A DNA stretch of 64,000 bases from Candidatus Marinacidobacterium sp. (lineage in GTDB: Bacteria > Acidobacteriota > Vicinamibacteria > Marinacidobacterales > Marinacidobacteraceae). This document shows positions 45,605-60,719 of this stretch, piece after piece. A program made the translations under genes and the position numbers. How positions within the stretch are numbered: the stretch's first letter is position 1; each line of letters starts with the position of its first letter. The stretch is taken from the NCBI GenBank assembly GCA_965262645.1, contig CBDHFO010000017.1, positions 2,616,582 to 2,680,581 of the forward strand. Direction: 5' to 3'. The notes beneath the pieces are model-generated. The model was given only the letters and a program-made list of their open reading frames with translations, did not search any database and was not told the DNA's origin.

Positions 45605-45872
45605 TTATAATTGACTTGGAGGGCGTCGGCGGTACTGGAGGTTTCAGATTTTGGGGCGGGTATCCAGCAGCCGCGAGGAGGTCAGCCGGAGAGCACGGGG
45701 AAGTGTTGGCGATGCGTACGTTCGGAGCACGCCGGCGCCGCTCAGGCGCGACCGAACTCGCCGGGCGTTCTGTAGAGTCAGAGGGCGCTTGAACGGGATC
45801 AGGCCTAAAATCACGCGGCCAAACCCGACGTAATTCTACAACGCATCCGTCACACGCGAAATCTTTCGGCCT

Positions 45873-45960
45873 GCGACTCGGGCAGCGGGCGCTCCTCTGC
45901 TGGTACGGGCTCTACCCGATCCACTGGCTGATCTTCCGGCGGATGCTGCGGAGAGTGGCG
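45873..45960 (+). pseudogene. DUF2867 fragment F2 (continuation of F1 after the 1.4-kb insertion)
   Basis: RLGQRALLCWYGLYPIHWLIFRRMLRR matches PLGLGGLLYWYGLYPIHWLIFRRML of the other copies. Confidence 0.6.
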
Positions 45961-45993
45961 GCGGCAGGACCCGCCCCGTGTAACAGTCCTGAC

Positions 45994-47847
45994 ATGCCCA
46001 GATCCGTCACGAACCCGCTCCCGTGCCTTCTCGCCGTAGCCTTGGTCGCCGCGGGCGCGGCCGGCGCCGGCCAGGAAACCCGGGAGCCCCGGATCGTGGT
46101 GGATCCCGACTACCTCGTCAGCCGGGATGGCGACCGGCCTCACGTCGAGATCATGGCGGCCGCGAACCCGCGCAATCCACGCAACCTGCTGGCCGGCGCC
46201 ATCACCTTCACCCGTCCCGACGGCGGGGCCGCCACCAAGGCCTACGTCAGCTTCGACGGCGGCGTTCAGTGGGACGACGTCACCTTCCCGGAGCAGAAGG
46301 AGACGGGTGGGGGCGATCCCCAGGTGGCGTTCACCGCGGCCGGCACGGCGATCTTCGCCACCCTCGCCACCCGGGCGGATGAGACCGGCCGCACGCGGGC
46401 GTTCCTTCACACCTACCGGTCCGAAGACGGAGGACGGACCTGGTCGGCTCCCTACGACCTCGGGGCCTCGTACGACCACCCCATGCTGGCGGCCGATCAG
46501 ACGACGGGGCGCTTTGCCGGACGGTTGTACATGAGTGTCCTCTACGGCCGCGAATACAGCCTCGGCGTCTTCCGCTCGGAAGACGACGGCAGAAGCTGGA
46601 TCGGCCCGGTGAAGTTCCTGGACGGCGCCGGCGAGCGAGGGCTCAACGTGGACCCCACGGTGGTGTTTCACGACGGGGCCGTCATGGTTCCCTTCGTGGA
46701 CTTCCCGTCCAACCCCGAACAGACCGCCAACTGGACCGAATCGCGACTCTGGACGGTCGTTTCGACCGACGGTGGGGTGACGTTCTCCGAGCCGAAGCCG
46801 GGCCCGGTGAAGATGACGGGCGAGGAGACGCGCCTGGCGAGGGAGGGGACACCGCGTTTTCGGGGCGGCTCCTGGACCATGCTCGCGGCGGACCGCAGCC
46901 AGCGTTTCCGGGATCGCGCCTACGCGGTCTGGCCCGACTACTCGGAGGGGCTTCCGCGCGTCGTGATTTCCTGGTCCGGCGACCGCGGTTCCACCTGGAG
47001 CGACCCCGGGCCAGTGGCGTCCCCGGGGGGTCCGGATGTCCAGCAGTTCCAGCCCGCGGTCGCCGTCAACCGGGACGGCGTGCTGGGGGTAAGTTGGTAC
47101 GACACCCGGCAGGCTCCGTCGCGGTTCGCCTTCCACGAGTACTTCGCGGCTTCCTTCGACGGCGGCGAGACGTTCACCTCACCGATCCAGGTTTCGGGAT
47201 CGCTCTCCGAGCCCCTGGGCTCCGGCCATCTGGTGCCCGCTCCGGTGACCTTCAGCGGAACCGAAGGAGAGCTGCGGGTCGCGCTGATCTCCGCGGCTTC
47301 GCGCTGGGTGAATGGTGGCGACTACCTGGGTCTTACCACGTCGTCCGACGGGCACTTCCACCCGGTCTGGGCCGACGCGCGGTCGGGCGCCTATCAGGTG
47401 TACACGGCGGCGGTACGGATCGTGGACGGACCGCCCGCGCCGCCGGCGACGGCCGGGGAACCGGTGGACATCACCGGGCGGATCGAACTCGTGAACGACC
47501 CCGGAAGCTATGACGCCGAGACCGGAGTGGCCGACCTCTGGATCCGGCTACGGAATGTGTCGGCCGCTCCCCTCGCGGGACCGATCGAGGTGGAGATCCG
47601 CAAGTTCGGGAGCGGCATGGGAGACATGTTTTCGGAACTCGCCCCGGAGGTCCTCAACGCAGATAACGGACGGCGCGGAAACGGCGCCGTCTTCCGCTAC
47701 GACGAAGTGCTCGGCAGCGATGGCGTCCTCCCTCCCGGCGGCGTCAGCGGCGCGGTCCTCTGGCGTCTCAAGCTCGCGGAGCCGGTCCGCATTCCCAATC
47801 TGCACCTCTACATCACCGGCCGCGAGGTGGTCGCGGAGCCGCGGTAG
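45994..47847 (+). CDS. secreted BNR/Asp-box six-bladed propeller (exo-alpha-sialidase-like), copy 1
   Basis: Signal CLLAVALVAAGAAGAG. Asp boxes SFDGGVQW, SEDGGRTWS, SEDDGRSW, STDGGVTFS, SGDRGSTWS, SFDGGETFT. Confidence 0.75.
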   Translation: MPRSVTNPLPCLLAVALVAAGAAGAGQETREPRIVVDPDYLVSRDGDRPHVEIMAAANPRNPRNLLAGAITFTRPDGGAATKAYVSFDGGVQWDDVTFPEQKETGGGDPQVAFTAAGTAIFATLATRADETGRTRAFLHTYRSEDGGRTWSAPYDLGASYDHPMLAADQTTGRFAGRLYMSVLYGREYSLGVFRSEDDGRSWIGPVKFLDGAGERGLNVDPTVVFHDGAVMVPFVDFPSNPEQTANWTESRLWTVVSTDGGVTFSEPKPGPVKMTGEETRLAREGTPRFRGGSWTMLAADRSQRFRDRAYAVWPDYSEGLPRVVISWSGDRGSTWSDPGPVASPGGPDVQQFQPAVAVNRDGVLGVSWYDTRQAPSRFAFHEYFAASFDGGETFTSPIQVSGSLSEPLGSGHLVPAPVTFSGTEGELRVALISAASRWVNGGDYLGLTTSSDGHFHPVWADARSGAYQVYTAAVRIVDGPPAPPATAGEPVDITGRIELVNDPGSYDAETGVADLWIRLRNVSAAPLAGPIEVEIRKFGSGMGDMFSELAPEVLNADNGRRGNGAVFRYDEVLGSDGVLPPGGVSGAVLWRLKLAEPVRIPNLHLYITGREVVAEPR

Positions 47848-47879
47848 CTCGCGCGGATCGGCGGTCGGCTCACGCACCG

Positions 47880-48131
47880 AGCGCGATCCAGTGGTGGGTC
47901 GAGGCGCTCGTGAAGGACCGACTACTCCGGTTGCAGGCGGTGACGCAGGTCCCAGGACGAGCCTGGCTCCAGTTCAAAGTGAAGCCGACGGAGGGCGGCA
48001 GCCAGATCACCCAGACGGCCGTTTTTGATCCGCTCGGACTGGAAGGGCTCCTCTACTGGTACGGGCTTTATCGGATCCACTGGCTGATCTTTCGGCGGAT
48101 GCTGCGCGTAGTGGCAGCGCGGAGGTGTTGA
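47880..48131 (+). pseudogene. DUF2867 fragment F3 (divergent)
   Basis: KDRLLRLQAVTQVPGRAWLQFKVKPTEGGSQITQTAVFDPLGLEGLLYWYGLYRIHWLIFRRMLRVVAARRC*. Confidence 0.6.
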
Positions 48132-48594
48132 GCGGCTTCGACCCCTCCTCGAATGAAGGAGCCCTTCCTGAGTCGCCTCGGTCACCACCTGGATCTGGGT
48201 GCGTACCCTGTTACGTCAGCAAGAGCCCCGACACCCACGTCCATAGGCGAGATGTGTTGCGCCGCCGCCGCCCGAGGGCTACTCGCATGGATCCGAATCA
48301 GGTCGCTCAGCGGCCATCACCAAGCACCTAGCCTGTGGATGACGCGTAGGGTCTGACGTCAATACATCGAAGACCCGAGCGGCTGATCGGCCCGGTACCG
48401 AGAGGCGAGTAACGAAGCACAGCGCAACATGTGAGCGGCACCTTGTGCCCATGCAGTGCAGATAAGTCGGCCGTCCGCCGCTACTCAACGTACAATAAAC
48501 ACGCTCCGGTGGGCGTGGAGCCTCCCATCACGACAAAGACACCGGGTGGGCGGCATGTGGCCTCCCTCACACTGGTTCGAGAGGCTACCGAAAC

Positions 48595-49581
48595 ATGGCG
48601 ACAGCTGATCACGTCAAAGCGCTAGTCCAAAGCCATGCCGCCGGCGACGAGGAACGCTTCTATGCCGTTGCCATGCAGGTGGCCGCGCAGGCTGCCCGCC
48701 AAGGGCACGTGCGATTCGCGAGAGACCTTCGCACTTTGGTCGATGAGGCGAAGAGCCGCTGGTCGGTAGCTGAATCTGGGCAGCAGACGAGGCCCATCCC
48801 GATAGTACAGCCGCGCGGAGAGTTGGCGGGACTACTTTCCGCAGAGTTTCCAAAACTCCGAATGTCCGACATGGATTTGGACTTAGCCGTTCGATCCAAG
48901 ATTGACCGGGTACTGCTAGAGCAGAGACAGCGCGCGAGACTTCTAGGACACGGGATGTCCCCGTTGCGGAAGACCCTGCTGGTCGGGCCTCCAGGTACAG
49001 GAAAAACCATGACGGCTAAAGCTCTCGCCGGCGAATTGAGTGTCCCGCTATTCACGATTCAACTCGACGGTCTGATCACCCGGTACCTGGGTGAGACTGC
49101 CGCCAAGCTTCGTCTGGTATTTGACGCGGTTCAGAGCAGCCGCGCCGTCTATCTGTTTGACGAATTCGACGCCTTGGGCGGAGACAGGACGGTCCGAAAC
49201 GAAGTAGGAGAAATTCGCCGGATTCTGAATTCCTTCCTTCAGTTTCTGGAGAATGATGAATCGGACAGCATCATAATTGCGGCTACTAACCACCCGAGCC
49301 TATTGGATGTTGCCCTCTTCCGTAGATTTGATCAGCTCATCAAATATAGCCTGCCATCTGATGCAACCACTAGGAAGCTGATCTGCCGCTCATTGAGGCT
49401 ACTGGGTGCGTTGCGGGTCGATTGGAGAGAAGTCCTCGCTGCCGCCGCAGGCTTGAGTCATTCCGATGTCGCGAGAGCATGCGAACAGGCGCTCAAGGAA
49501 TCCATTCTTGATGAGCGAACGTTCGTCGATACAGCACGGCTCGTGGACGCGCTGAATGTCAGGCAAACACTCTACCGTTAA
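48595..49581 (+). CDS. AAA+ ATPase, IetA-like
   Basis: Walker A GPPGTGKT, Walker B VYLFDEFD, sensor region IIIAATNHP. It lies 17 nt upstream of the S8 protease gene. Confidence 0.75.
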   Translation: MATADHVKALVQSHAAGDEERFYAVAMQVAAQAARQGHVRFARDLRTLVDEAKSRWSVAESGQQTRPIPIVQPRGELAGLLSAEFPKLRMSDMDLDLAVRSKIDRVLLEQRQRARLLGHGMSPLRKTLLVGPPGTGKTMTAKALAGELSVPLFTIQLDGLITRYLGETAAKLRLVFDAVQSSRAVYLFDEFDALGGDRTVRNEVGEIRRILNSFLQFLENDESDSIIIAATNHPSLLDVALFRRFDQLIKYSLPSDATTRKLICRSLRLLGALRVDWREVLAAAAGLSHSDVARACEQALKESILDERTFVDTARLVDALNVRQTLYR

Positions 49582-49598
49582 AGCGAGACTCTCTTTCC

Positions 49599-52142
49599 GT
49601 GCCGTCCAAACGCAACCGTAGGCATATCCTCGTTCCGAGGAAACCGGCGACCGAGCCCTACCAGCCTCACCCACGAGACATCGATCCGCCAAGCCATCCG
49701 GAGCCGCCGGATAGACGGCGCCACGCGGCAACACTACGTGGCGCTCTACTACAAGCGCAGCAAGAAGGGCTAAACCGGCGCCTTGCCAGCCCGATATCCG
49801 TGGGCGGCGCCCAGCCGGGCCTCTACATAGAGTTTCGCAGCTTACCGGGCGGGGGGCTCAAGCTGGAATCATTGGAAGATCGGCGTTGCGGGATCGAGCT
49901 GGTGGCGGTCCAACGCGCTCGAATGCACCAAGAGGACGCACCTGTCGAGATCGCTACGGTTTTCGTGCCAGATGGTGCACTTAAGAGATTCTTCACCCGT
50001 TTCCGCGAATACGCGGAAGAACTCACCGGGACGGGGCAGCCTCGACACCGGGAAATGGTGGACCGTATTGCTGGTCTCAGGAGAGCAACCCTGCGCGCGC
50101 TGTGGACGGACGCGAGTGATGTCTATCCGGCGGAAGACGAGACAATGTGGTGGGAGGTGTGGCTGCGACGTCAAGACGGGAAAGAGGTAGCTAGGCTGGT
50201 TGAATTCGCAGAGCAGTCTGGGCTCCGCATTGGCGATCGACACCTAGGGTTTGCGGAGCGCATTGTAGTGCTTGTTAGTGGCTCCGTCGGTCAGCTTTCG
50301 GGATCGTTGGACGTTCTGGGTGACGTGGCTGAGGTGCGAAAAGCGAAGGAAAGCAGCGCCTTCTTTGTGAACGCCGACCCGGACGAAGAGGCGGATTGGC
50401 TCGTCGACTTGAAGAGGCGAGTTCAACGAGCAGAACAGGAAGCACCCGCAGTTTGTCTGCTAGATACGGGCATTACACGCGGACATCCGCTGCTAGTGGA
50501 TCTTGTGAGACCTGAGGACGCGATGGCAGTGGATCCCACGTGGGGCGGGCACGATGACGGAGGGGGTTCAGCTGCTATAGGCCACGGTACGCAGATGGCA
50601 GGCTTGGCCGCATACGGAGATCTCACATCGGTGCTATCCGGGACGGGCCCTGTCTATTTGCGGCACGTCCTGGAATCGGTGAAGATCCTGCCGCCGAGGG
50701 GTCAAACTCCGCGGCAGCTGTACGGGGCGGTCACGGTACAGGCAGTAATGCGCCCGGAGGAGATGACTCCGGGCCGGCGGCGCGTTTTTTCTATGGCCGT
50801 GACGGCTGCTGACGATCGAGATCGTGGCCAGCCCACGTCGTGGTCAGCGGCGATCGATGCGCTTGCGGCCGGGCGTGCGTTCGACTCGACGGCGAAGGGG
50901 CTGACCTATCTTGATTCCGCAGAGGATGGCGCCCAGCGGTTGTTCATACTCAGCGCGGGAAATGTTCCGTCGGTGCGGATTCAGAAGGATCACCTGGGCC
51001 GTAGTGATCTAGAGCCTGTGCACGACCCGGCACAGGCGTGGAACGCACTGACGGTGGGTGCGTTCACGGAAAGAGCAACGATGCAGTCGATAGGACATGG
51101 AAACTGGGCACCGATAGCTTCGGCCGGCGAGTTGTCTCCGTGGAGCACGACCTCACTGACTTTCGAGGAGCGTTGGCCCAACAAACCAGACCTTGTCTAC
51201 GAGGGCGGCAATGTTGCATCAGATGGACAGAACATTGAGGAGTCGAATCCAGACTTGTGTCTGCTCTCGACACACTATAGGCCAACCCAGAGAGCCTTTT
51301 GCTTGTCATGGGCAACCAGTGCTGCTGCGGCCCAAATCGCGAGAATGGCGGCGGTCATCAGTGCCGACTACCCAGAGTTTTGGCCGGAAACTATCCGAGC
51401 ACTCTTGATTCACACGTCGGAGTGGACTCGCGCCATGGGCAGCCATTTGAATCCGGGGAGCGGCAAGAACGCGAGGGCTAGGCTGATTCGCAGATATGGC
51501 TTCGGGGTGCCGCGCCTGGAAAGAGCCTTGCGCAGTGCGAACGATAGTCTCACTCTGATTTCCCAGGCCAGCATGCGGCCCTTCGTCAACGGCAAGATGC
51601 ATGAGATGCATTTGCATGAGCTGCCGTGGCCTAAGGAGGTGTTGAGGGAGCTGGGAGACGAGGAGGTCACGCTCCGCGTGACCCTGTCATACTTTGTGGA
51701 ACCGAATCCAGGGCGACGAGGTTGGAAGAAACGGCATCAGTACAGCTCACACGGATTGCGGTTTGATTTGAAGCAGCCTACGGAGACTGTAGATGACTTC
51801 CGCAAGCGGCTGAACAAGCTAGCCCTGGGAGAGAAGGAGAAGAAGCCGCGAACAGGAGGGGGTTCCTCCGAATGGGTTGTCGGTGAGGTCGCACGGAGCA
51901 AGGGCTCGGTGCATTCTGATCGCTGGAAGGGAACAGCAGCAGATTTAGCGGAGCGAGGAGTGGTGGGAATCTACCCGGTGTCGGGATGGTGGAAGGAGCG
52001 CCGAAGCCACGGCGCGACCGAGGGAAGAGGTCGATATGCACTGGTTCTCTCAATAGAAACGGCGGCGGTCGGCGTGGACATTTGGACGCCGGTAGCTCTT
52101 GAGGTTGGCGTTCCGGTGGAAGAGGAAGTCAGCGTCAGCTAA
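49599..52142 (+). CDS. S8 (subtilisin-like) serine peptidase, IetS-like
   Basis: Catalytic triad contexts CLLDTGI (Asp), GHGTQMAG (His) and SWATSAAAAQIA (Ser). 847 aa. Confidence 0.75.
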   Translation: MPSKRNRRHILVPRKPATEPYQPHPRDIDPPSHPEPPDRRRHAATLRGALLQAQQEGLNRRLASPISVGGAQPGLYIEFRSLPGGGLKLESLEDRRCGIELVAVQRARMHQEDAPVEIATVFVPDGALKRFFTRFREYAEELTGTGQPRHREMVDRIAGLRRATLRALWTDASDVYPAEDETMWWEVWLRRQDGKEVARLVEFAEQSGLRIGDRHLGFAERIVVLVSGSVGQLSGSLDVLGDVAEVRKAKESSAFFVNADPDEEADWLVDLKRRVQRAEQEAPAVCLLDTGITRGHPLLVDLVRPEDAMAVDPTWGGHDDGGGSAAIGHGTQMAGLAAYGDLTSVLSGTGPVYLRHVLESVKILPPRGQTPRQLYGAVTVQAVMRPEEMTPGRRRVFSMAVTAADDRDRGQPTSWSAAIDALAAGRAFDSTAKGLTYLDSAEDGAQRLFILSAGNVPSVRIQKDHLGRSDLEPVHDPAQAWNALTVGAFTERATMQSIGHGNWAPIASAGELSPWSTTSLTFEERWPNKPDLVYEGGNVASDGQNIEESNPDLCLLSTHYRPTQRAFCLSWATSAAAAQIARMAAVISADYPEFWPETIRALLIHTSEWTRAMGSHLNPGSGKNARARLIRRYGFGVPRLERALRSANDSLTLISQASMRPFVNGKMHEMHLHELPWPKEVLRELGDEEVTLRVTLSYFVEPNPGRRGWKKRHQYSSHGLRFDLKQPTETVDDFRKRLNKLALGEKEKKPRTGGGSSEWVVGEVARSKGSVHSDRWKGTAADLAERGVVGIYPVSGWWKERRSHGATEGRGRYALVLSIETAAVGVDIWTPVALEVGVPVEEEVSVS

Positions 52143-52234
52143 GAATCTGAACGAAAATCTAGGACGGATCGATTGGCGAGCGGCTGGCGCGCCGCGATGC
52201 CGAGTTGGTGATCGGGGTGCGTTTGCCTGACCGC

Positions 52235-52342
52235 GCCTAGCGGTAGCTTCTCGGGGAGGCGCTTCCAGCGCGTAGAGATGTAAGCGGTACGACCGTCACT
52301 CTATCCGGGCGCTCGTAGCCAAACCCCGTACCGGTCACCACG
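52235..52342 (-). pseudogene. 3' remnant of a DUF4143-type ATPase gene abutting the IS256 end
   Basis: LVVTGTGFGYERPDRVTVVPL compares with VVVTGTGYGYERPDGVTVVPV at 63629-63700. DNA identity is about 80% over about 60 nt. Confidence 0.5.
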
Positions 52343-52343
52343 A

Positions 52344-53731
52344 GAGCTATGACCGAAAGTGGGTGACGGCGAGAGAAGGGGGTGGCGTATCGTGGGAGTA
52401 ACCAACCTTCCACATCTCCAAAGAGGAGTGATACGCCATGACGGAGAGTACCGTTGTTTTCCTTCCCTCAGCAGAGGGAGTTGAGGACCCGCTGACGGAG
52501 GTTCTGCGAGCGGGGGCCCGGCAGTTGGTGAGGCACGCGGTGGAAGCGGAGGTGGCGGCGCTGCTGGCGGCCTACGCCGATCATCGGACCGAGACCGGCC
52601 GTCGGCGCCTGGTGCGTCACGGGCATGGCCCGGAGCGGGAGATCCTGACGGGGATCGGGCCGGTTCCAGTGCGGCGGCCGAAAGTACGGGACCGCGGAGG
52701 CGGGGGGGAGGATCGGATCCGGTTTTCCTCGACGATCCTGCCCCGTTTCGCGCGCCGGACGCGCTCGTTGGACGCGGCGCTGCCGACGCTGTATCTGCTG
52801 GGAGTGTCGAGCGGGGACTTCGGGGAGGCGCTGTCGGAGCTGGTGGGTCCGGGGGCGTCGGGGCTGTCGCCGGGTGTGATCGGTCGTCTCAAATCGGCAT
52901 GGGAGGCGGAGCACGAGCGTTGGCGTCTCCGGGATCTCTCGAGACGGCGGTATGTCTACGTTTGGGCGGACGGGATCTACCTTCAGGGTCGGCTGGAAGA
53001 CGAGAAGCAGTGCGTTTTGGTGTTGATCGGGGCGACGCCGGAGGGCCGGAAGGAACTGCTGGGGTTCCAGGCGGGGTTCCGGGAGAGCGCTCAGAGCTGG
53101 CGGAAACTCTTGGAGGATCTGAAGGGGCGTGGCCTCACGATCCGCCCGGAACTGGCGATCGGGGACGGGGCTCTCGGCTTCTGGAAGGCGCTGGACGCGA
53201 GCTTCCCCCAGACGCGCCGCCAGCGCTGCTGGGTGCACAAAACCGCAAACGTGTTGAACGCGTTGCCGAAGGCCCGGCAGCGGAACGCGAAGCAGGACCT
53301 GCACCAGATCTGGATGGCGGCGGGCCGCGCCGCGGCGGAGAAGGCATTGGACACCTTCGCCGCCAAATACCAGGCCAAGTATCCGAAGGCGGTCACCTGC
53401 CTGACCAAGGACCGGGAGGAGCTGCTCGCGTTCTACGACTTCCCGGCGGAGCACTGGCAGCACATCCGGACCACGAACCCCATCGAGAGCGTCTTCGCCA
53501 CAGTCCGGCATCGCACCGTTCGCAGCAAGGGCTGCCTCTCCCACCAGACGGCGCTCGCGATGGTCTTCAAGCTGGTGACCGCAGCCAGCAAGACCTGGCG
53601 CCGCCTCAACGGCTATGAAAAGTTGCCCCGGGTCATCCAGGGCGTCAAATTCACCAACGGCATTCCGGCCGACGAAACCGAAACCCGCGCCGCCGCCTGA
53701 TCATGTCGTCACCCACTTTCGACCATAGCTC
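52344..53731 (+). mobile_element. IS256-family insertion sequence
   Basis: Imperfect terminal inverted repeats GAGCTATGACCGAAAGTGGGTGACG (left) and CGTCACCCACTTTCGACCATAGCTC (right). No clear target duplication seen. Confidence 0.8.
52438..53700 (+). CDS. IS256-family transposase
   Basis: 420 aa; EVLRAGARQLV..AVEAEVAALL, YVWADGIY, RQRCWVHKTANVLNALP, TTNPIESVF. Confidence 0.85.
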   Translation: MTESTVVFLPSAEGVEDPLTEVLRAGARQLVRHAVEAEVAALLAAYADHRTETGRRRLVRHGHGPEREILTGIGPVPVRRPKVRDRGGGGEDRIRFSSTILPRFARRTRSLDAALPTLYLLGVSSGDFGEALSELVGPGASGLSPGVIGRLKSAWEAEHERWRLRDLSRRRYVYVWADGIYLQGRLEDEKQCVLVLIGATPEGRKELLGFQAGFRESAQSWRKLLEDLKGRGLTIRPELAIGDGALGFWKALDASFPQTRRQRCWVHKTANVLNALPKARQRNAKQDLHQIWMAAGRAAAEKALDTFAAKYQAKYPKAVTCLTKDREELLAFYDFPAEHWQHIRTTNPIESVFATVRHRTVRSKGCLSHQTALAMVFKLVTAASKTWRRLNGYEKLPRVIQGVKFTNGIPADETETRAAA

Positions 53732-54008
53732 CGCCGTTCCCAAGGAGCGCCGGTCTTCAACGGGCCCAGTGCACTTCGCGCAGCCGGCCGATCCTGTCCC
53801 GGTCCCGGACCGTCGCCCATTCCCGCTCTTCAGACGCCTCCCTGGCGTAGAGAACGCTCAGACCCGTCATCAATCTTGGCTTTTACGATATGTCGCTCCG
53901 CCTTCTAGCCGTTCTCGGACGGTTCGTTTTGCCCCGACCTGGTGCCGGACCGTCCCGTTCCCTCGCGACACCCCGCCCAATCTTCGACCTTCCTGCCCAT
54001 CCAACGCG

Positions 54009-55361
54009 TCACGCCTCAAATCGATAGCCCTTGCCCAGCACGACTTCATCCCAGTTCGGGAGCGCTCCCTCCCTCACCATGTGCAGTATTGCCCCCCGGC
54101 AGAACTCCTGGGCTCTACCGACCGTGCCGGCATCCTCCTCTCGGTTTTTTCTCTTTAGGCCCCTGCCATGCAGGACACTGGATGCCAGTCCATACCCCTT
54201 CCGGAGGGTATCGAAACAGGCTTTGCGCTCGTCATAAGTCTCCCCGAGAAGCCATGCCCCTCTTGTAGCGATACGAAACTGAATTTCAGACGAGTTTCCG
54301 GAGTCGCCGGCCAGCAGCACCGATTCCAGAGCTATTCGCAGTTCCACAAGCTGTTCCTCAAGCGGTCTGCCCCGTTTCGATCTCCTCCACCTGGCTATCG
54401 CGACATCGAGCGCCGAGAACCTCCTTAGCCGTCCCTCAATTTCCAAGCTTCGCGTGAGTTGCTCGTCTGAGATCGACCGTGGCGACCCGCTGCTCGTCTC
54501 CTGCAACGACGCCCCATGGCCTGGGTTAAGGAAGAATGCGTCGATGTCCCCGTAGTTCGACCAACCTCGAAACCAATCCACGTTGTTGTCGATTTCGAGC
54601 GACATCGCCCGGCAGAGACCTGCGACGGACACCTGCGACAGTTCCGGATTCCTGATTCGGGGCCGCGGAACATCTTCGGAAAACTTCTTCTTTTCCGCAT
54701 CGGGGCAATAAAGCGCCGGTCCGACCTCGGTTTCGAGCGACAGCATCGCCCGCCGGCCATACTGCTCGTACTTGATGTCACCAGCATCCAGTTGGACATA
54801 AAGGGATCTCGGAAACTCCTCGCCGTTGCCCGACAGTGTTTCCAGAACGAGCCCGTTCCTGGGCGATATCCGTCCGTCGTTGAGCACCCCCTTGAGCAGG
54901 AAGCATTGCCAGACCGGGATGGGCTGCCCTTGGACCCAGCCGCAAAATGTTGCCGCGGTCCGTTCCGGCCCGATTCGGGCCGATGCCAGTACGAGTATCC
55001 GGGCATAGTCTTCGACCGAGGGCAGCCGAGGAGAAGCCGACGCTCCCGTCAGCCTGTAGAGACCGTTGCCGACTGCGCCCGTGTCGGACGCCCGATAGGG
55101 CGCAAGCATCGGAGCGATCGCCGAAACGAGACCGGCGAGCTCGCCTTCGGGCACGGCGACCGAATTGGCGCCGTTAAGCCGGTAGTCATGATGACGCTTC
55201 CCGGAATAGAGTTCGTGCATCTCACTCGCACCGAAACTCCGTCTCCAGACATTGCGGAACTGCGTCCGGCGGAGGGCCCATTGGATACATTGCTCCAGGC
55301 GTTCACGCTCCACGACGTTCGTCTCCTTGCGCCATGCCGGCGTCTCGCGCGGGAACGTCAT
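54009..55361 (-). CDS. Apea-like HEPN-domain protein (ApeA-like)
   Basis: The C-terminal 130 aa, LRIALESVLL...EIQFRIATRGAWLLG...LRKGYGLASSVLHG, fit the HEPN helix pattern. However, the RSxxxH position reads ASSVLH. Confidence 0.55.
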   Translation of the reverse strand: MTFPRETPAWRKETNVVERERLEQCIQWALRRTQFRNVWRRSFGASEMHELYSGKRHHDYRLNGANSVAVPEGELAGLVSAIAPMLAPYRASDTGAVGNGLYRLTGASASPRLPSVEDYARILVLASARIGPERTAATFCGWVQGQPIPVWQCFLLKGVLNDGRISPRNGLVLETLSGNGEEFPRSLYVQLDAGDIKYEQYGRRAMLSLETEVGPALYCPDAEKKKFSEDVPRPRIRNPELSQVSVAGLCRAMSLEIDNNVDWFRGWSNYGDIDAFFLNPGHGASLQETSSGSPRSISDEQLTRSLEIEGRLRRFSALDVAIARWRRSKRGRPLEEQLVELRIALESVLLAGDSGNSSEIQFRIATRGAWLLGETYDERKACFDTLRKGYGLASSVLHGRGLKRKNREEDAGTVGRAQEFCRGAILHMVREGALPNWDEVVLGKGYRFEA

Positions 55362-55480
55362 CGCGACGAGCCGAAACCGGCTTCCCGAATACTATAAATG
55401 CCATGCTATGTAGGCGCCCTGCACCTGTCCGCCGCACCATCCCGGTCAGCGTGTCCTCCACACCGCGCGTACCCACACTC

Positions 55481-55891
55481 CTAAAGCCCCAACTCCATGG
55501 CGTTGGTCCAGGAACCTTCAAAGGTCCAATCGTCGGGAAAGGTTTGCAGACGTGCGCATTCTCTTACTGAAAAGTACCTTACAGAACCGTCTTTTGGTCT
55601 GACTGAATTCTCGCCACCGGGCACTCCGTTGTCACCGGCCTTTGGTGTCTTAGATGGTTCATCCCATTTACTTCCGTCATGACCGGGATAGGCGCGAACT
55701 CCGGGATTCAAAAAGTGATTGGAATCGTCAATTGCAGTTTGTCCCTCTTCTATGGAAGGTAAATCAGATATGGCATCGCGAACTGTACGCCATGGTACTC
55801 CTAATCGGTCTGAGCTCAATGCAGAAACCCTCGCTATTCGGTTCCGCCGCTTGGCGCGCGGTCCCGAGTTCCTCGCCGGGGCCGCTTTCAT
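55481..55891 (-). pseudogene. C-terminal relic of a DNA (cytosine-5) methyltransferase
   Basis: TVRDAISDLP...AYPGHDGS..DEPSKT...RYFSVRECARLQTFPDDWTFEGS (TRD and motif IX). The N-terminal catalytic half and the final QIGNAVP motif are missing. Confidence 0.65.
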
Positions 55892-55977
55892 CCCAAGGCG
55901 GCCGTGGTCCGTGGTGATGTCCTGATCTCGGATCCCTCAAGTCCGCGCTTCAGGGTGTCCCTCAGGTTGCCATGCCG

Positions 55978-57603
55978 TCAGGTCGTGCCCTTACGCCGTT
56001 TGCGAACGCCCGCGCGCTTGGGAGTCCGATTGCGAATGAAGCCGAAACTCGCCTCCACGGTCATGAGCCGCATGTGTTTCATGACCCGCATCAGACTGAT
56101 GCGAGAGAACAGCGGTAAGTTGTCGGACTTGAACCGCTTGTCCTTGTGAGTCACGATGCCAAAGACCACGCGCCAACGCTGTTGCAAAAATGGGCCAGTA
56201 AATCGCGATTCCTCTTGTGGAGCTGCTTTCGCTGTAAGCAAAGCCTGCATTCTTTGTGTGGCGAGAGGTTCCATCCTTAGCAACTCAATCGAGCCTGCGC
56301 CCTGATTGAACAAGTGACTGAGCTGAGACGAGAAGGTAGATATCTTTATGTGGTAAAAGATGGCTGTCGCATCGCGAACCGTGTATAGATCACAGGGCTC
56401 AACCTGAGACTGACCGGCAGGTGCAATATTGGTTCTATCTAGGCACAATACCGTGGACGATGCCTGCGCCGTGCTGGTGTTGTAGTCCGCTTCGTTAACG
56501 TGTGTATAGTCGGGTAATGGTATGTTGCAACATAGTGGGTCCAAAAAGCCCTTGAGCCTTTGAATGTAGTTCTCGTCGACTGAGTACCATTCCCCTTCAT
56601 TCAGGTGATAGCTCCGTCCTGACTGGCTAAGCTGGGTGTCGAAAACGAGGCACTTAAAAACTTGGTACGACCTATAGATAACCCCGGAGGCATCGGTGAG
56701 GAGCAGTCGGTGTTTCTTGAGATGGTCGATCGTCAAGGTGTGGCGAAGGATTGCGTGTGATTTCAGATATTCATGGTACTTGTCGAGAAACACGTCGTCG
56801 TAGATCAAGCTCGATCCGGCGCCAGAAAATCGTGCACTGGTGACATTCATGTTGTCGACAATCGCGGGAATCGCCAAGTAAACGTTCTCGGTGTGCTCCC
56901 TGAGGTTGGACACGAGTCGGATGTTGAGCTGCCTGATGACCTCGGGGTCACGGACTGGAGTTATGCTCCCGAGGTCGGGAAATGTCTCGAGGTAAGTTGT
57001 TCGCTCGTAGAGGTCCAGGAGACGCGCACAGAGTTCGGCCCAACCAGTTGGGTCACAGACGATACTGATGCGTAGACTCGAGGAACCCGTGGCATGTCTG
57101 AACAGGTGAGAGTGTTGGTCGCTGGTGTAGCCGGTGAGCTGTTTCAGGATGGCCGTGTCACGATCGAAATCGAATGCCGTGAGGTCCGAAAAGTTGGGGA
57201 TTTGTGTGCGACGTCGGCGCGCGGCACCTGGCTCCAGGAGGTCGGTGCTCCGGAGCTTCTTCGGGTCGACGCTGTTTAGCGTGACCCGCAGTCCAAAATC
57301 GTGTTCGTAGCTCTCATCATTCAGATAGTGGTGGACGTGGCCGAAAGAGAGAGCAAATGTGCGTCGACCGACAGGGAGAAAAATCAGTGCTCCCTTATGT
57401 ACTTGATGGAGCGCCTCTTGGATGCCGAAGCAGTCTTTCCACCACGGTTCCTTGGGGGGAGCGTCAAGGAGGAACAGTGACGCGTTCGCAGGAAGCGTCG
57501 ACCCGTGGCTGGGGGTCAGACGCTGCTTTGGATCCGCGAGCGCGGTCGTGGGATCAAAGTGTGGTTTAAGGAGGAAGATGGAGAAGGGATGGCTCTTTGA
57601 CAT
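55978..57603 (-). CDS. TIGR04141/DUF6119-like sporadically distributed protein
   Basis: MSKSHPFSIFLLK..., FALSFGHVHHYL, DFGLRVTLNSVDPKKLRS, NEGEWYSV, EPCDLYT...FYHIKISTFSSQLSHLFNQGAGSIELL. Confidence 0.6.
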   Translation of the reverse strand: MSKSHPFSIFLLKPHFDPTTALADPKQRLTPSHGSTLPANASLFLLDAPPKEPWWKDCFGIQEALHQVHKGALIFLPVGRRTFALSFGHVHHYLNDESYEHDFGLRVTLNSVDPKKLRSTDLLEPGAARRRRTQIPNFSDLTAFDFDRDTAILKQLTGYTSDQHSHLFRHATGSSSLRISIVCDPTGWAELCARLLDLYERTTYLETFPDLGSITPVRDPEVIRQLNIRLVSNLREHTENVYLAIPAIVDNMNVTSARFSGAGSSLIYDDVFLDKYHEYLKSHAILRHTLTIDHLKKHRLLLTDASGVIYRSYQVFKCLVFDTQLSQSGRSYHLNEGEWYSVDENYIQRLKGFLDPLCCNIPLPDYTHVNEADYNTSTAQASSTVLCLDRTNIAPAGQSQVEPCDLYTVRDATAIFYHIKISTFSSQLSHLFNQGAGSIELLRMEPLATQRMQALLTAKAAPQEESRFTGPFLQQRWRVVFGIVTHKDKRFKSDNLPLFSRISLMRVMKHMRLMTVEASFGFIRNRTPKRAGVRKRRKGTT

Positions 57604-57820
57604 GGTGATCGGGGCTATATGGGTGAGGTGGGGCCGCACGGTATTTTGGCGTAGGGAGCGGACCGGGGGAGTTGTGGGCGCTATGGCTGGAGTGAGTGGC
57701 GGATGCCGGGCCGTCGGGTGGTGGACCGGTATCCCGTGCTGAGGGGCGAAGAGCCACTAACGGGACCAAAGGCGGCCTGTCGGGTTGCTTCAAAGTCACC
57801 TTGTCGCGTTCGACATGGGT

Positions 57821-57884
57821 CGGCATCGCGATTTCGCCCGCCGACGGCGGGCGATGCCGACCTGGAGGTCGGCGGTCCCTTGCC
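57821..57884 (-). repeat. double-hairpin REP-like module, subfamily 2 (reverse orientation)
   Basis: The reverse complement reads GGCAAGGGACCGCCGACCTCCAGGTCGGCATC-GCCCGCCGTCGGCGGGC-GAAATCGCGATGCCG. Confidence 0.5.
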
Positions 57885-57924
57885 TTCCGTCCGCCGACCT
57901 CAGGCCACGATCAGTGGACGGAAG

Positions 57925-58040
57925 GCCTTCGGCCCGTGCTCGCTCCACGTACTCCGCCGTGTTGTAGAGGTGGGGCGAGAGGCGGAATCCCCCGGAGCTT
58001 GAGCCCGCGATGCCGTGATGGTCGTTCATCCGGGAAAAGA
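57925..58040 (-). pseudogene. C-terminal remnant of a class V aminotransferase-like gene
   Basis: GIAGSSSGGFRLSPHLYNTAEYVERA resembles the RxSxHxYNTxEE tail of this fold (compare the gene at 10065-11276). Confidence 0.35.
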
Positions 58041-58042
58041 CT

Positions 58043-58237
58043 TCGCGGCTCTCGGGGAAGATGAAGGTGCCCGGCCGCGCCTGGCTCCAGTTCGAGGGTG
58101 AGCCGGCGGGGGACGGCCGCCGGATCACCCAGGCGGCGGTCTTCGACCCCCTCGGGTTGGGAGGGCTCCTCTACTGATATGGGCTCTACCCGATCCACTG
58201 GCTGATCTTCCGGCGGATGCTGCGGGATGTGGCCGCA
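58043..58237 (+). pseudogene. DUF2867 fragment F4 (uninterrupted reference for the F1/F2 junction, contains an in-frame stop)
   Basis: EMKVPGRAWLQFEGEPAGDGRRITQAAVFDPLGLGGLLY*YGLYPIHWLIFRRMLRD. Confidence 0.6.
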
Positions 58238-60127
58238 GGACCCGTCCCGTGTAACAGTCCGGAAATGCCCAGCTCCGTCCCGAACCCGCTCCCGTGCCTT
58301 CTCGCCGTAGCCCTGGTCGCCGCGGGCGCGGCCGGCGCCGGCGCCGGCCAGGAAACCCGGGAGCCCCGGATCGTGGTGGATCCCGACTACCTCGTCAGCC
58401 GGGATGGCGACCGGCCTCACGTCGAGATCATGGCGGCCGCGAACCCGCGCAATCCACGCAACCTGCTGGCCGGCGCCATCACCTTCACCCGTCCCGACGG
58501 CGGGGCCGCCACCAAGGCCTACGTCAGCTTCGACGGCGGCGTTCAGTGGGACGACGTCACCTTCCCGGAGCAGAAGGAGACGGGTGGGGGCGATCCCCAG
58601 GTGGCGTTCACCGCGGCCGGCACGGCGATCTTCGCCACCCTCGCCACCCGGGCGGATGAGACCGGCCGCACGCGGGCGTTCCTTCACACCTACCGGTCCG
58701 AAGACGGAGGACGGACCTGGTCGGCTCCCTACGACCTCGGGGCCTCGTACGACCACCCCATGCTGGCGGCCGATCAGACGACGGGGCGCTTTGCCGGACG
58801 GTTGTACATGAGTGTCCTCTACGGCCGCGAATACAGCCTCGGCGTCTTCCGCTCGGAAGACGACGGCAGAAGCTGGATCGGCCCGGTGAAGTTCCTGGAC
58901 GGCGCCGGTGAGCGAGGGCTCAACGTGGACCCCACGGTGGTGTTTCACGACGGGGCCGTCATGGTTCCCTTCGTGGATTTCCCGTCCACCCCCGAACAGA
59001 CCGCCAACTGGACCGAATCGCGACTCTGGACGGTGGTTTCGACCGACGGTGGAGTGACGTTCTCCGAGCCGAAGCCGGGCCCGGTGAAGATGACGGGCGA
59101 GGAGACGCGCCTGGCGAGGGAGGGGACACCGCGTTTTCGGGGCGGCTCCTGGACCATGCTCGCGGCGGACCGCAGCGAGCGTTTCCGGGATCGCGCCTAC
59201 GCGGTCTGGCCCGACTACTCGAAGGGGCTTCCGCGCATCGTGATTTCCTGGTCCGGCGACCGCGGTTCCACCTGGAGCGACCCCGGGCCAGTGGCGTCCC
59301 CGGGGGGTCCGGATGTCCAGCAGTTCCAGCCCGCGGTCGCCGTCAACCGGGACGGCGTGCTGGGGGTAAGTTGGTACGACACGCGGCAGGCTCCGTCGCG
59401 GTTCGCCTTCCACCAGTACTTCGCGGCTTCCTTCGACGGCGGCGAGACGTTCACCTCACCAATCCAGGTTTCGGGAGCGCTCTCCGAGCCCTTGGGGTCC
59501 GGCAATCTGGTGCCCACCCCGGTGACCTTCAGCGGAACGGAAGGAGAACTGCGGGTCGCACTGATCTCCGCGGCTTCGCGCTGGGTGAATGGTGGCGACT
59601 ACATGGGTCTTACCACGTCGTCCGACGGGCACTTCCACCCGGTCTGGGCCGACGCGCGGTCGGGCGCCTATCAGGTGTACACGGCGGCGGTACGGATCGT
59701 GGACGGACCGCCCGCGCCGCCGGCGACGGCCGGGGAACCGGTGGACATCACCGGGCGGATCGAACTCGTGAACGACCCCGGAAGCTATGACGCCGAGACC
59801 GGGGTGGCCGACCTCTGGATCCGGCTACGGAATGTGTCGGCCACTCCCGTCGCGGGACCGATCGAGGTGGAGATCCGTAAGTTCGGGAGCGGCATGGGAG
59901 ACATGTTTTCGGAACTCGCCCCGGAGGTCCTCAACGCAGATAACGGACGGCGCGGAAACGGCGCCGTCTTCCGCTACGACGAAGTGCTCGGCAGCGATGG
60001 CGTCCTCCCTCCCGGCGGCGTCAGCGGCGCGGTCCTCTGGCGTCTCAAGCTCGCGGAGCCGGTCCGCATTCCCAATCTGCACCTCTACATCACCGGCCGC
60101 GAGGTGGTCGCGGAGGCGCGGTAGCGT
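58144..60127 (+). repeat. about 2-kb direct repeat, copy B
   Basis: See copy A (45873-47850). Identity ends right after the stop codon in both copies. Confidence 0.9.
58265..60124 (+). CDS. secreted BNR/Asp-box propeller (exo-alpha-sialidase-like), copy 2
   Basis: About 98% identical to copy 1 at the protein level, with the same Asp boxes. Confidence 0.75.
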   Translation: MPSSVPNPLPCLLAVALVAAGAAGAGAGQETREPRIVVDPDYLVSRDGDRPHVEIMAAANPRNPRNLLAGAITFTRPDGGAATKAYVSFDGGVQWDDVTFPEQKETGGGDPQVAFTAAGTAIFATLATRADETGRTRAFLHTYRSEDGGRTWSAPYDLGASYDHPMLAADQTTGRFAGRLYMSVLYGREYSLGVFRSEDDGRSWIGPVKFLDGAGERGLNVDPTVVFHDGAVMVPFVDFPSTPEQTANWTESRLWTVVSTDGGVTFSEPKPGPVKMTGEETRLAREGTPRFRGGSWTMLAADRSERFRDRAYAVWPDYSKGLPRIVISWSGDRGSTWSDPGPVASPGGPDVQQFQPAVAVNRDGVLGVSWYDTRQAPSRFAFHQYFAASFDGGETFTSPIQVSGALSEPLGSGNLVPTPVTFSGTEGELRVALISAASRWVNGGDYMGLTTSSDGHFHPVWADARSGAYQVYTAAVRIVDGPPAPPATAGEPVDITGRIELVNDPGSYDAETGVADLWIRLRNVSATPVAGPIEVEIRKFGSGMGDMFSELAPEVLNADNGRRGNGAVFRYDEVLGSDGVLPPGGVSGAVLWRLKLAEPVRIPNLHLYITGREVVAEAR

Positions 60128-60221
60128 TTCTCTCCACCGGTAGCGGTGGTCATCTGGCCCGAGACGTCTTCCAGTGGATGCTCAGGGGAATCGGCGCTCG
60201 GAGGCAGCGAGAAGGGCAGCG

Positions 60222-60719
60222 TCAGAACGCGAAGCCCATGACATAGAGGGCAAGGCCGGTCGCGCAGGTGAGGCACAGACCGAGGAATGTCAGTTGCCCC
60301 CACCCCCGGTGATGGCGACTGAAGGTCCCGGGAAGAACAAAGGTATAGCGCCTCCAGGACACGGTCACCAGGATTCCCCACAGCAGGAATGTCGGGATGG
60401 CGATCGCCAGATGGACTCCGAAGAGACGACTCATGGCCGGCGTTCCGTAGAACTCGCTCGACAGGAGTCCCTTCGCGCTGCCGAGCTGGAGACTGGTTTC
60501 GAGAAGTACCACGGCGCCAAAACCCAACAAGAGTCCGACCAACTGAAGATTGCGGTGTTTCAGATACTCCCTGCCTGCCGCGAACGTCATCGCGTACCCC
60601 ATCAAGATCGGCGTCGCGGTCAGAACCACCAGGGAGACGTCAATCAAGCTGTCGGCTCGCGTTCCCAAAAAGCCCGTTGAGTCAAGCACCGCTATCTGCC
60701 TCCCCGAGTTCCCCGCCAA
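60222..60719 (-). CDS. small integral membrane protein (DUF420-like?)
   Basis: 165 aa with four predicted TM helices. The family assignment is tentative. Confidence 0.5.
   Translation of the reverse strand: MAGNSGRQIAVLDSTGFLGTRADSLIDVSLVVLTATPILMGYAMTFAAGREYLKHRNLQLVGLLLGFGAVVLLETSLQLGSAKGLLSSEFYGTPAMSRLFGVHLAIAIPTFLLWGILVTVSWRRYTFVLPGTFSRHHRGWGQLTFLGLCLTCATGLALYVMGFAF

Follow-up and report, generated by a model that had tools for sequence, protein, structure and literature searches.

The window, as we call the whole stretch of 64,000 nucleotides analyzed here, contains two direct repeats in its right third (Table 1). BLASTN of the window against itself showed that they are 97.3% identical over 1978 alignment columns, 9 of which are gap columns, and that they are spaced 12,274 nt from start to start. 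Each consists of the 3' part of a DUF2867 gene followed by an intact gene for a BNR/sialidase-like protein (BNR1 and BNR2). BNR homologues number 396, part of them named sialidase family protein. The true starts of the two genes are ATG 45994 and ATG 58265, the N-terminus is signal-peptide-like in both proteins, and the BNR reading frames do not overlap the DUF2867 reading frame. Differences between the repeats are clustered and include a 3-nt and a 6-nt indel, and the DUF2867 tip (45883-45963) is only ~85% identical between copies. The likeness stops at 47848 and 60125, one base past the stop codons (47845-47847 and 60122-60124). GC content is patchy at 0.51-0.64 in the interior versus 0.67-0.71 in the repeats. 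A preliminary description of this DNA had proposed near-identical direct repeats made of a DUF2867 3' fragment and a sialidase-like gene, identity ending right after the stop codon, and a patchy interior of lower GC. The alignment, the Pfam matches, the two intact BNR frames, and the GC values agree with it on each of these points. An exact-sequence look-up of BNR1, BNR2 (with two start codons), and the IS5 transposase found no identical record.

Table 1. Features of the locus, with positions in the window.
Feature	Position	Strand	Evidence
DUF2867 copy 1, 5' part (fragment A, residues ~18-112)	44192-44477	+	PF11066 E 1.3e-14; tblastn
1.4-kb insertion splitting DUF2867 copy 1	44478-45872	-	
PDC-S21/DUF4917 SIR2-like gene in the insertion	44546-45604	-	PADLOC PDC-S21 E 1.3e-107; Pfam DUF4917 E 1.6e-62
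DUF2867 fragment B (3' tip, copy 1)	45873-45963	+	
Direct repeat copy 1 (fragment B + BNR1)	45877-47848	+	BLASTN
BNR1, intact, 617 aa, predicted secreted BNR/sialidase-like	45994-47847	+	Pfam BNR_2 E 6e-11
DUF2867 3' fragment C (residues ~69-145), left edge of IetAS module	47892-48122	+	Pfam E 5.8e-11
IetA-like AAA+ ATPase	48595-49581	+	PADLOC IetA PDLC02196 E 2.3e-71 (residues 3-322); Pfam AAA E 7e-31
IetS-like S8 protease	49599-52142	+	Pfam Peptidase_S8 E 7.7e-59; PADLOC IetS E 9.1e-37
DUF4143/AAA_14 gene 3' end relic (64 nt)	52285-52348	-	83% identical to window 63650-63708
IS256-family element, 44-nt imperfect terminal inverted repeats	52344-53731 (transposase 52438-53700)	+	
450-aa gene, uncharacterized family (earlier "Apea-like HEPN")	54009-55361	-	
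C5 cytosine methyltransferase relic	55481-55891	-	PF00145 E 5.1e-7, profile positions 256-300 only
DUF6119/TIGR04141 gene, intact	55978-57639	-	Pfam E 1.3e-135, full profile; NCBIfam TIGR04141 E 2.4e-129
Aminotransferase (Aminotran_5) 3' relic (residues ~365-406) + downstream spacer	57805-58045	-	BLASTN, tblastn
Head-to-tail junction: aminotransferase 3' relic joined to DUF2867 residue ~76, CGGC-type microhomology	58041-58049		Three-way alignments
DUF2867 3' fragment D	58045-58237	+	tblastn
Direct repeat copy 2 (fragment D + BNR2)	58151-60125	+	BLASTN, tblastn
BNR2, intact, 619 aa	58265-60124	+	
DUF420 gene, conserved right neighbor of BNR in relatives	60222-60719	-	Pfam E 1.3e-9
Near full-length DUF2867 copy E (residues ~4-145)	60810-61221	+	Pfam E 1.1e-19
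IS5-like transposase (DUF772 + DDE_Tnp_1)	61759-63213	+	
Right-copy DUF4143/AAA_14 gene, 3' part, runs past window end	63629-64000	-	

DUF2867 sequence recurs across the region in fragments, searched by tblastn with a 155-aa reference, that start at scattered residues (~4, 18, 37, 69, 76, 83, 94, and 110). The 1.4-kb PDC-S21 insertion that splits the leftmost copy is also present in the related locus L039 at 96.9% identity. With this insertion disregarded, the homology of the repeats extends ~130 nt leftward (44345-44477 versus 58010-58142). Fragment C is 93% identical to its counterpart in L037-L041. To the right of the second repeat, the DUF420 gene is 94-97% and the DUF4143 gene 88-91% identical to those of L001/L005/L006, and the arrangement BNR2-DUF420-copy E is contiguous in L003, L004, and L030.

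Genes between the repeats

The IetAS anti-phage system is reportedly formed by an AAA+ ATPase, IetA, and an S8 protease, IetS. The pair found here resembles it in that the two genes are adjacent, co-oriented on the + strand, and 17 nt apart, with matches to both profiles and a complete S8 domain. Unlike that system, the pair scores far under the NCBIfam equivalog cut-offs (200.2 bits versus 510 for IteA and 50.6 bits versus 900 for IteS), and the N-terminal 280 residues of the IetS-like protein match no IetS model. These scores identify the pair as a distant relative for which "IetAS-like" is the proper term, and its anti-phage role is putative.

Profile searches supported the IS256 element, which has no 8-bp target duplication at its ends. 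Relatives carry IS256 inverted and 274 nt deeper into the DUF4143 relic; inversion in place, with a flank common to the relatives' copy, was dropped as an explanation because the flanks differ. The 450-aa protein had been described as an Apea-like HEPN protein, a call for which the searches gave no support. It had no match at E <=0.01 in Pfam, PADLOC, or NCBIfam, including ApeA_NTD1 and HEPN_Apea, and its best BLASTP E value against the ApeA of L002 was 1.3. None of the 219 homologues in its family has a precomputed Pfam domain. AF2 modeled it (pLDDT 85) with a C-terminal domain (residues 299-442) that is entirely helical and contains conserved R and H residues, and a Foldseek search of this model against the PDB gave no match below E 0.89. 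The DUF6119 protein had no PADLOC match, and a literature search on DUF6119/TIGR04141 returned nothing relevant.

The other genes listed in the preliminary description were recovered: the IetAS-like pair by PADLOC and Pfam, IS256, the DUF4143 and aminotransferase relics by their similarity to relatives, the DUF6119-like gene over its full length, and, weakly, the C5-methyltransferase relic. PADLOC, proposed there as a check, matched IetA and IetS but neither the 450-aa gene nor DUF6119. The only recognized defense system inside the bracket is IetAS, the 450-aa gene not being demonstrably ApeA or HEPN, and a defense role of the bracketed segment would depend mainly on the IetAS-like pair. Profile scans of ORFs found no recombinase between the repeats besides the IS256 transposase, and no tyrosine or serine recombinase domain in any ORF scanned, which covered about 42-64 kb of the window.

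The duplication junction

The 64-nt DUF4143 relic is 81.5% identical to the 3' end of DUF4143 in L001/L006. The aminotransferase relic comprises 175 nt of the gene's 3' end, and the BLASTN matches are colinear with L001/L006 at 14219-14291 and 14454-14636. Between the repeats, the DUF4143 relic, spacer, and aminotransferase relic thus stand in the order found in these single-copy relatives. At ~58045 the aminotransferase relic runs straight into DUF2867, which marks this point as a head-to-tail duplication junction. As in a tandem duplication, the two copies have the same orientation and are linked by a novel end-to-start junction. These comparisons show two copies of an ancestral block, DUF2867-BNR-(DUF2867 fragment)-DUF420-DUF4143-aminotransferase, of which the left one breaks off within the 3' end of the aminotransferase and is joined at a microhomology to the DUF2867 of the right one. 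The repeats are two copies of a conserved housekeeping-type core block (DUF2867-BNR), duplicated head to tail. Because both relics are colinear with single-copy relatives, the interior appears to be the remodeled remainder of a duplicated core segment rather than genes acquired as one set.

Related genomes

Five more distant MAGs have a single copy in the synteny cobO-DUF2867 (149-155 aa)-BNR-aminotransferase-NaH-M20. Close relatives (L001, L003-L007, L030, and L037/L040/L041) have one BNR with varied contents around it. Among genomes with a BNR at least 92% identical we found at least 9 architectures, most of them with one BNR. The flanks are constant, with cobO, FecCD, and nuclease genes on the left and aminotransferase-NaH-M20 on the right (L001-L010, L022, L030, L032, and L037-L046). 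Defense systems found at the site across the lineage include IetAS, PDC-S21, MmeI, ApeA, a Multi_ubiq/E2/E1 set (Bil-type, ubiquitin-like), and SIR2 genes. The same flanks across strains and species, together with a variable content that includes known defense systems, are what define a core defense hotspot.

A second, independent two-copy genome (L039+L043) has, in order, fragment A, PDC-S21, B-BNR-C-IetAS-DUF4143 relic-IS256-HATPase_c-SIR2, a 586-nt aminotransferase relic, and DUF2867-288aa-BNR-DUF420-aminotransferase. It and the window are unlike in the right half of the interior. The aminotransferase relics of the window and M39 are only ~77% alike over their common 175-180 nt, which leaves a common origin of the two duplications probable rather than established. 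Contigs of at least 4 other assemblies carry the IetAS module at 97-99% identity. Since the module also occupies this chromosomal position in strains that have one BNR, its presence does not require the repeats.

The locus had been proposed to be a recombination-assembled defense island and comparison with single-copy relatives suggested as a check. Such relatives exist and mostly have one BNR, and the region is indeed recombination-built, variable, and rich in defense genes. However, relatives carry IetAS without the repeats, and the repeats do not delimit a discrete island; the island extends past both of them (PDC-S21 on the left; DUF420, DUF2867 copy E, and the IS5-like element on the right).

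Support for the assembly

The preliminary description had asked for verification because repeats of this kind can mislead assemblers, and a single BNR locus of two co-existing strains could in principle be stitched into a false duplication. The source metagenome does hold several strains of the species with alternative layouts, depth varies by segment, and one loose end occurs at 60800. Against this, unitigs from the source sample covered all four repeat/unique junctions with no mismatch (44430-45936, 47809-52382, 57854-58210, 58197-58333, and 60086-60775); this read support comes from Logan k-mer contigs, in which the same junctions would be expected of a one-copy chromosome accompanied by a 12.3-kb circle. 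Only a two-copy layout can contain the relic/DUF2867 junction, which zero-mismatch unitigs covered in four to five source-sample runs (X1-X4 among them); a junction unitig (57934-58093) was also found in X20, an independent sample of another study. BNR depth was 86-99x versus 41-51x for unique parts of the island in X2 and 34-48x versus ~17x in X4, an approximately twofold copy number given that these are contig k-mer depths. Physical linkage of both copies is probable, with indirect support from the 4.5-Mb source contig and from an analogous, independent long-read contig of 1.27 Mb that follows the same two-copy logic, with two BNR copies around IetAS. The two-copy arrangement is very probably real, with misassembly unlikely, and we give an artefact of two stitched strains almost no weight.

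A 555-nt unitig inside BNR had a chimeric SNP pattern that is best read as bubble popping, and it was not used as evidence. Joints of 90% likeness in other samples, considered as excision products, were rejected since they reflect other haplotypes of the locus. The sole new feature of the predicted deletion product would be linkage across 1.9 kb of BNR, which is invisible to k-mer contigs.

Sequence exchange between the BNR copies

BNR1 and BNR2 are sister sequences (98.4%). They share a difference-free tract of 578 nt (P ~3e-4), and the repeat alignment has no difference between positions 46060 and 46631. In alignment columns 1200-1350, by contrast, BNR1 and BNR2 are only 92.6% identical; here BNR1 is 98% identical to copy 1 of M39 and BNR2 is 100% identical to L005. 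The identical tract shows gene conversion between the copies, and such conversion means that the copies do interact. The repeats are long and similar enough, with their 578-nt identical tract, for RecA-type recombination, so the deletion or circularization of 12.3 kb that had been predicted is possible.

Discussion

We consider it likely that two diverged DUF2867 3'-BNR copies lie head to tail in a strain-variable defense hotspot of sponge-associated Vicinamibacteria ('Ca. Marinacidobacterium'). As in relatives, the site would have the cobO-ABC importer-nuclease genes on its left and, beyond position 64000, a predicted aminotransferase-Na/H exchanger-M20 peptidase block on its right. The second copy may be the product of recombination, either unequal or illegitimate, or else a second haplotype of a related strain that was inserted one-sidedly with the help of homology, and the event would be older than the divergence from at least one other strain. 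The left-copy interior would later have been remodeled, with IetAS taking the place of DUF420 and an IS256-associated rearrangement replacing most of DUF4143 by the 450-aa gene, the methyltransferase relic, and DUF6119. The BNR copies still swap sequence by gene conversion, and the same homology could allow RecA-type collapse of the duplication, by which IetAS and the rest would be lost as a 12.3-kb deletion or circle. Several orders of these events are compatible with the data.

In bacteria, tandem segmental duplications undergo RecA-dependent collapse or conversion. The locus resembles them in its head-to-tail arrangement, the fusion of the unit's end to its start with microhomology, the ~2x depth of the duplicated part relative to its flanks, and its gene-conversion tracts. 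Unlike classical tandem duplications, the copies are old and diverged (~85% at the DUF2867 tip), foreign genes have displaced the original interior, and the arrangement is kept in at least two strains and is not transient. Homology-facilitated illegitimate recombination is said to occur on uptake of foreign DNA, and the locus is similar to its products in having homologous core DNA as the anchor on one side and a microhomology join at the opposite end. This process would explain copies that resembled different alleles from the outset. DUF2867 tips at ~85% versus BNR genes at 98% would fit an inter-strain origin better than a simple in situ duplication; an in situ duplication with subsequent allelic recombination accounts for the data equally well.

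Other origins can be imagined for the repeats. The fragments might be att-site scars of serial site-specific integration into the 3' end of DUF2867, where each integrase island brings a replacement 3' end and the BNR repeat belongs to one such element. The window does have five DUF2867 3' fragments in one orientation with the natural 3' end retained; a tyrosine integrase gene of L001 is 50 nt away from a DUF2867 fragment, and in a Gemmatimonadota MAG the BNR orthologue has a 61%-identical integrase at a distance of 4 kb. However, the fragment starts are scattered with no single core site, a check of boundary cores was largely negative, and the window has no integrase at 42-64 kb. DUF2867 and BNR are adjacent ancestrally in distant relatives, so a fragment upstream of BNR requires no integration event, and at 58045 DUF2867 is joined to the aminotransferase relic rather than to element DNA. 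We regard serial integration as improbable, and the missing recombinase domain in the ORFs scanned at ~42-64 kb and the scattered DUF2867 boundaries speak against an integrase-mobilized genomic island.

Still less probable, in our view, is a discrete mobile unit in which the 12.3 kb of repeat and interior, composite-transposon-like or circularizing, ferries defense genes among genomes. Long direct repeats could give a circle, the interior has lower GC and an IS256, and the IetAS module recurs at high identity in other assemblies. Yet the repeats are core genes in conserved synteny and not IS copies, IetAS sits at the same chromosomal place in single-BNR strains, and the right half of the interior is unlike between the two two-copy genomes. 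There is also no target duplication and, among the loci fetched, no copy in a different genomic context. A composite transposon in particular is not supported, since the repeats encode DUF2867/BNR core genes and the lone internal IS256 lacks an 8-bp duplication. The bracketed segment is a variable region between duplicated core genes and not a self-mobile element.

A more speculative reading, to which we assign a low probability, is that the DUF2867-3'/BNR block, with DUF420, is a portable homology "handle" for defense cassettes, which would move with pieces of these boundary genes at their ends, allowing integrase-free capture in which one homologous and one illegitimate crossover per event each time leave a 5'-truncated DUF2867 copy. 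If so, the duplicated BNR would be a maintained feature for gaining, shuffling, and shedding cassettes, and the locus an integrase-free cassette-accretion system rather than an accident.

Under the duplicated-core reading that we prefer, the locus is similar to cDHS1 and cDHS2 of Pseudomonas aeruginosa (PMC10250203) in that the site is fixed between conserved core genes and its content varies by strain, is rich in known defense systems, and has a GC content below that of the genome. Exchange through the conserved flanks by homologous recombination was proposed in the discussion of that study. Unlike cDHS1 and cDHS2, here the DUF2867-BNR boundary block is duplicated so that 2-kb direct repeats enclose part of the variable region, DUF2867 as a boundary gene persists as many 5'-truncated copies, and the host is an uncultured sponge-associated acidobacterium.

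The locus is a clear example of island remodeling by recombination, though an ordinary one, with no new mobile element, and current views are not overturned by it. For annotation, it provides an IetAS-like pair remote from curated models and two uncharacterized genes (the 450-aa family and DUF6119) in a defense context. With at least 9 natural variants of one site, it is a base-pair-level record of how a defense hotspot is rebuilt in an uncultured sponge symbiont, through duplication of boundary core genes, microhomology junctions, IS256-associated replacement, cassette swaps (DUF420 to IetAS), and gene conversion. It also teaches that 2-kb repeats around defense genes need not signal a mobile element.

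A duplicated block containing the DUF2867-BNR pair

Comparison of the window with itself gave one strong direct repeat with 97.3% identity over 1978 alignment columns (9 gap columns) and a repeat-to-repeat spacing of 12,274 nt. A preliminary description had reported near-identical direct repeats of a DUF2867 3' fragment and a sialidase-like gene, with identity stopping right after both stop codons and patchy, lower GC between them, and these observations hold. In each copy the DUF2867 3' tip is followed by an intact gene of the BNR/sialidase-like type (Pfam BNR_2), the likeness ends one base past both stop codons, and GC is 0.51-0.64 and patchy in the interior versus 0.67-0.71 in the repeats. 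The likely ATG starts of the two genes, BNR1 (617 aa) and BNR2 (619 aa), are each followed by a signal-peptide-like stretch. Base-by-base alignment of the copies revealed three zones: the first ~90 nt, at the end of the DUF2867 reading frame, are ~85% alike, 46060-46631 has no difference, and 46632-47601 has scattered substitutions with a dense cluster at ~47184-47326.

Features of the repeats and the interior
Feature	Position	Remark
PDC-S21/DUF4917 insertion	44478-45872	SIR2-like, single gene
Repeat copy 1	45877-47848	BNR1 start 45994
DUF2867 3' fragment C	47892-48122	after BNR1
IetA/IetS		after fragment C; position of DUF420 in relatives
DUF4143 3' end	52285-52348	relic, 64 nt
IS256	52344-53731	after DUF4143 relic
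450-aa gene	54009-55361 (-)	after IS256; place of DUF4143 body in relatives
C5-methyltransferase relic, DUF6119		after IS256; place of DUF4143 body in relatives
DUF4143-aminotransferase spacer	57805-57875
Short element	57840-57885	~35-45 nt, at spacer edge
Aminotransferase gene, last ~175 nt	57871-58045	relic
Duplication junction	58041-58049
Repeat copy 2	58151-60125	BNR2 start 58265

One set of reference proteins was mapped on 40 related loci. Five Vicinamibacteria MAGs that are more distant (L002/L008, L009, L010, L022, L032) share the order cobO - DUF2867 (149-155 aa) - BNR - aminotransferase(-) - Na/H exchanger(-) - M20 peptidase(-). Because this order is conserved, DUF2867-BNR is an old, adjacent, single-copy core pair and not cargo. 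The site is very plastic in close relatives, whose BNR nucleotide sequences are 92-98% identical, with a single BNR in each of L001, L003-L007 and L030. The layout is nuclease-BNR-DUF420-DUF4143-aminotransferase in L005; L006 has a DUF2867 fragment between BNR and DUF420, and in L001 the L006 type is extended on the left by an integrase plus a DUF2867 fragment. In L003/L004 it is nuclease-DUF2867-[Multi_ubiq/E2/E1 set]-BNR-DUF420-DUF2867 fragment-DUF420-aminotransferase, so that the fragment is flanked by two DUF420 copies; the ubiquitin-like conjugation set (L003 1759-5736, L004 1-1431) comprises Multi_ubiq, Prok-E2_E, ThiF, BubE and SDH_protease. L007 and L030 are further variants.

Homologues of the BNR protein number in the hundreds among Acidobacteriota and Gemmatimonadota MAGs, of which many come from sponges. 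Orthologues with 73-78% amino acid identity occur in Longimicrobiales/Gemmatimonadota sponge symbionts (L011-L029) without DUF2867 or acidobacterial neighbours, which suggests transfer of the gene across phyla. At one of these loci, L012, an integrase lies 4 kb from the BNR orthologue and shares 61% identity with the one in L001.

Comparison with related genomes carrying a single sialidase-like copy showed that the interior between the repeats is colinear with the single-copy locus of L001/L006, and the DUF4143 and aminotransferase relics noted previously fall into this order. The aminotransferase relic is joined via CGGC-type microhomology to DUF2867 residue ~76 (fragment D), which runs on into BNR2. 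A join of this type, from the end of one unit to the start of the next, is characteristic of head-to-tail duplication. From there the right copy continues as BNR2 - DUF420 - near-complete DUF2867 (E) - IS5-like element - DUF4143 to the window end, and BNR2-DUF420-E is contiguous also in L003, L004 and L030. Downstream of BNR2 a DUF2867 3' end of ~35 nt is what remains of a mostly deleted L006-type fragment; BNR1 and fragment C meet at a different breakpoint.

The DUF2867 gene of copy 1 is nearly complete (residues 18-144) and is interrupted by the 1.4-kb PDC-S21 insertion. This insertion is ~97% identical in L039 (5888-7290), the other two-copy genome, and not present in L037, L038 and L040. 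Its right end (…CTTTCGGCCT|GCGACTCGGG) resembles the interrupted target (…GTTTTCGATCCGCTCGGG). The short element at the spacer edge has a k-mer depth of ~150-475x versus 17-51x alongside and, in every sample, numerous loose ends; it is probably a copy of a REP-like dispersed repeat.

Cargo genes and IS256

Several gene assignments made from sequence alone were upheld. IetA and IetS matched PADLOC models well (E 2e-71 and 9e-37) and contain AAA and S8 domains; we call this putative pair IetAS-like because both score far below the NCBIfam equivalog cut-offs. The DUF6119/TIGR04141 gene is full length, with no PADLOC match and no relevant result in a literature search. The C5-methyltransferase relic was recovered, but as a weak partial match. 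The label "Apea-like HEPN" for the 450-aa gene was not sustained: its family of >200 proteins from several sponge-symbiont phyla has no member with a Pfam domain, its confident AF2 model (pLDDT 85) has no PDB fold match, and it has no similarity to the bona fide ApeA of L002. Members come from Deltaproteobacteria, Acidimicrobiia, Chloroflexota and Gammaproteobacteria MAGs, and 51 positions are invariant among 27 of them.

The IS256 element is present as described. Because it has no 8-bp target duplication in the window or L039, and in relatives sits in the opposite orientation 274 nt further inside the DUF4143 relic (L037-L041 14029-15416), it would mark the breakpoint of a rearrangement rather than a simple insertion. 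Exchange of the interior's right half appears to take place at this breakpoint. Cargo after IS256 differs from strain to strain, and metagenome depth indicates many copies of the element.

Reality and dynamics of the arrangement

Misassembly of the repeats is unlikely. In X1-X4, four metagenome runs of one sample, probably the source, every repeat/unique junction was covered with zero mismatches by k-mer contigs that cross the junctions but stop short of spanning a whole 2-kb repeat (44430-45936, 47809-52382, 57854-58210 across the duplication junction, 60086-60185 and 60156-60775), save for one differing base in 58197-58333. Depth in X2 was 86-99x for BNR versus 41x for PDC-S21 and IetAS, 51x for DUF6119, 51x for the junction and 49x beyond E, with similar ratios in X3 and X4. 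A junction-only search also found the duplication junction in a run of another study (160-nt contig, 57934-58093, no mismatch, ~3x), and the window lies on a 4.5-Mb contig. One chromosomal BNR copy with a 12.3-kb circle would yield the same junctions as a two-copy chromosome; against this stand the roughly equal depth of the unique island parts and an independent 1.27-Mb contig from another assembly (L039 + L043) in which IetAS lies between two BNR copies (96.3% alike). This contig argues most tellingly for a real two-copy layout. Its order is DUF2971 - DUF2867|PDC-S21|tip - BNR - C - IetA - IetS - DUF4143 relic - IS256, followed by HATPase_c - SIR2 - aminotransferase relic - DUF2867 (175 aa) - 288 aa - BNR - DUF420 - aminotransferase - NaH - M20. 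Its aminotransferase relic (586 nt, 86% to the intact gene of the same contig) is longer than that of the window, the interior differs in its right half, and the window junction looks like a further deletion of this older type of arrangement. In place of the window's 450-aa gene and DUF6119, L039 (15569-18606) encodes an HATPase_c_3 protein and a 450-aa SIR2_2 protein, which may be another two-gene defence candidate.

BNR1 and BNR2 are sisters in a tree built from BNR coding sequences (98.4% identical, support 0.92), whereas the two copies of L039/L043 are not. Both window genes are intact, and of their codon differences 14 are synonymous and 14 non-synonymous. They share a 578-nt identical tract (P ~3e-4 if differences were evenly spread), which is not simple conservation because, in the tract part compared, both copies are 2-3.5% different from L005, L001 and L003. 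In alignment columns 1200-1350 they are only 92.6% alike; there BNR1 groups with L039 copy 1 (98%), and L005 does not differ from BNR2. Such a mosaic is the product expected of patchy gene conversion acting on an older duplication.

Five other long contigs carry the IetAS module, with fragment C and the DUF4143 relic as part of it, at 97-99% identity; the three followed to the right-hand flank have a single BNR. Minor strains with other layouts exist within the source sample. Other strains part from the window exactly at 60800 and 47991: a minor strain in X2 (~17x of 67x) has other sequence after DUF420 from 60800, and X5, X9 and X20 have different DNA ahead of the IetAS module up to 47991, within fragment C.

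The proposal of a recombination-assembled island thus stands as to a real structure built by recombination but not as to its limits, which the repeats do not set: the structure is a core block that has been duplicated within a larger defence hotspot. The proposal was also right that recombination could collapse the structure. Scattered fragment boundaries and the absence of an integrase among ORFs scanned over 42.5-64 kb of the window make integrase-driven accretion at DUF2867 unlikely; a self-mobile unit is also unlikely. The hotspot is of the same kind as those of Pseudomonas (PMC10250203), except that here the boundary genes are copied and eroded. The significance of the locus is modest, and its main value lies in the well-resolved series of natural hotspot variants that it offers.
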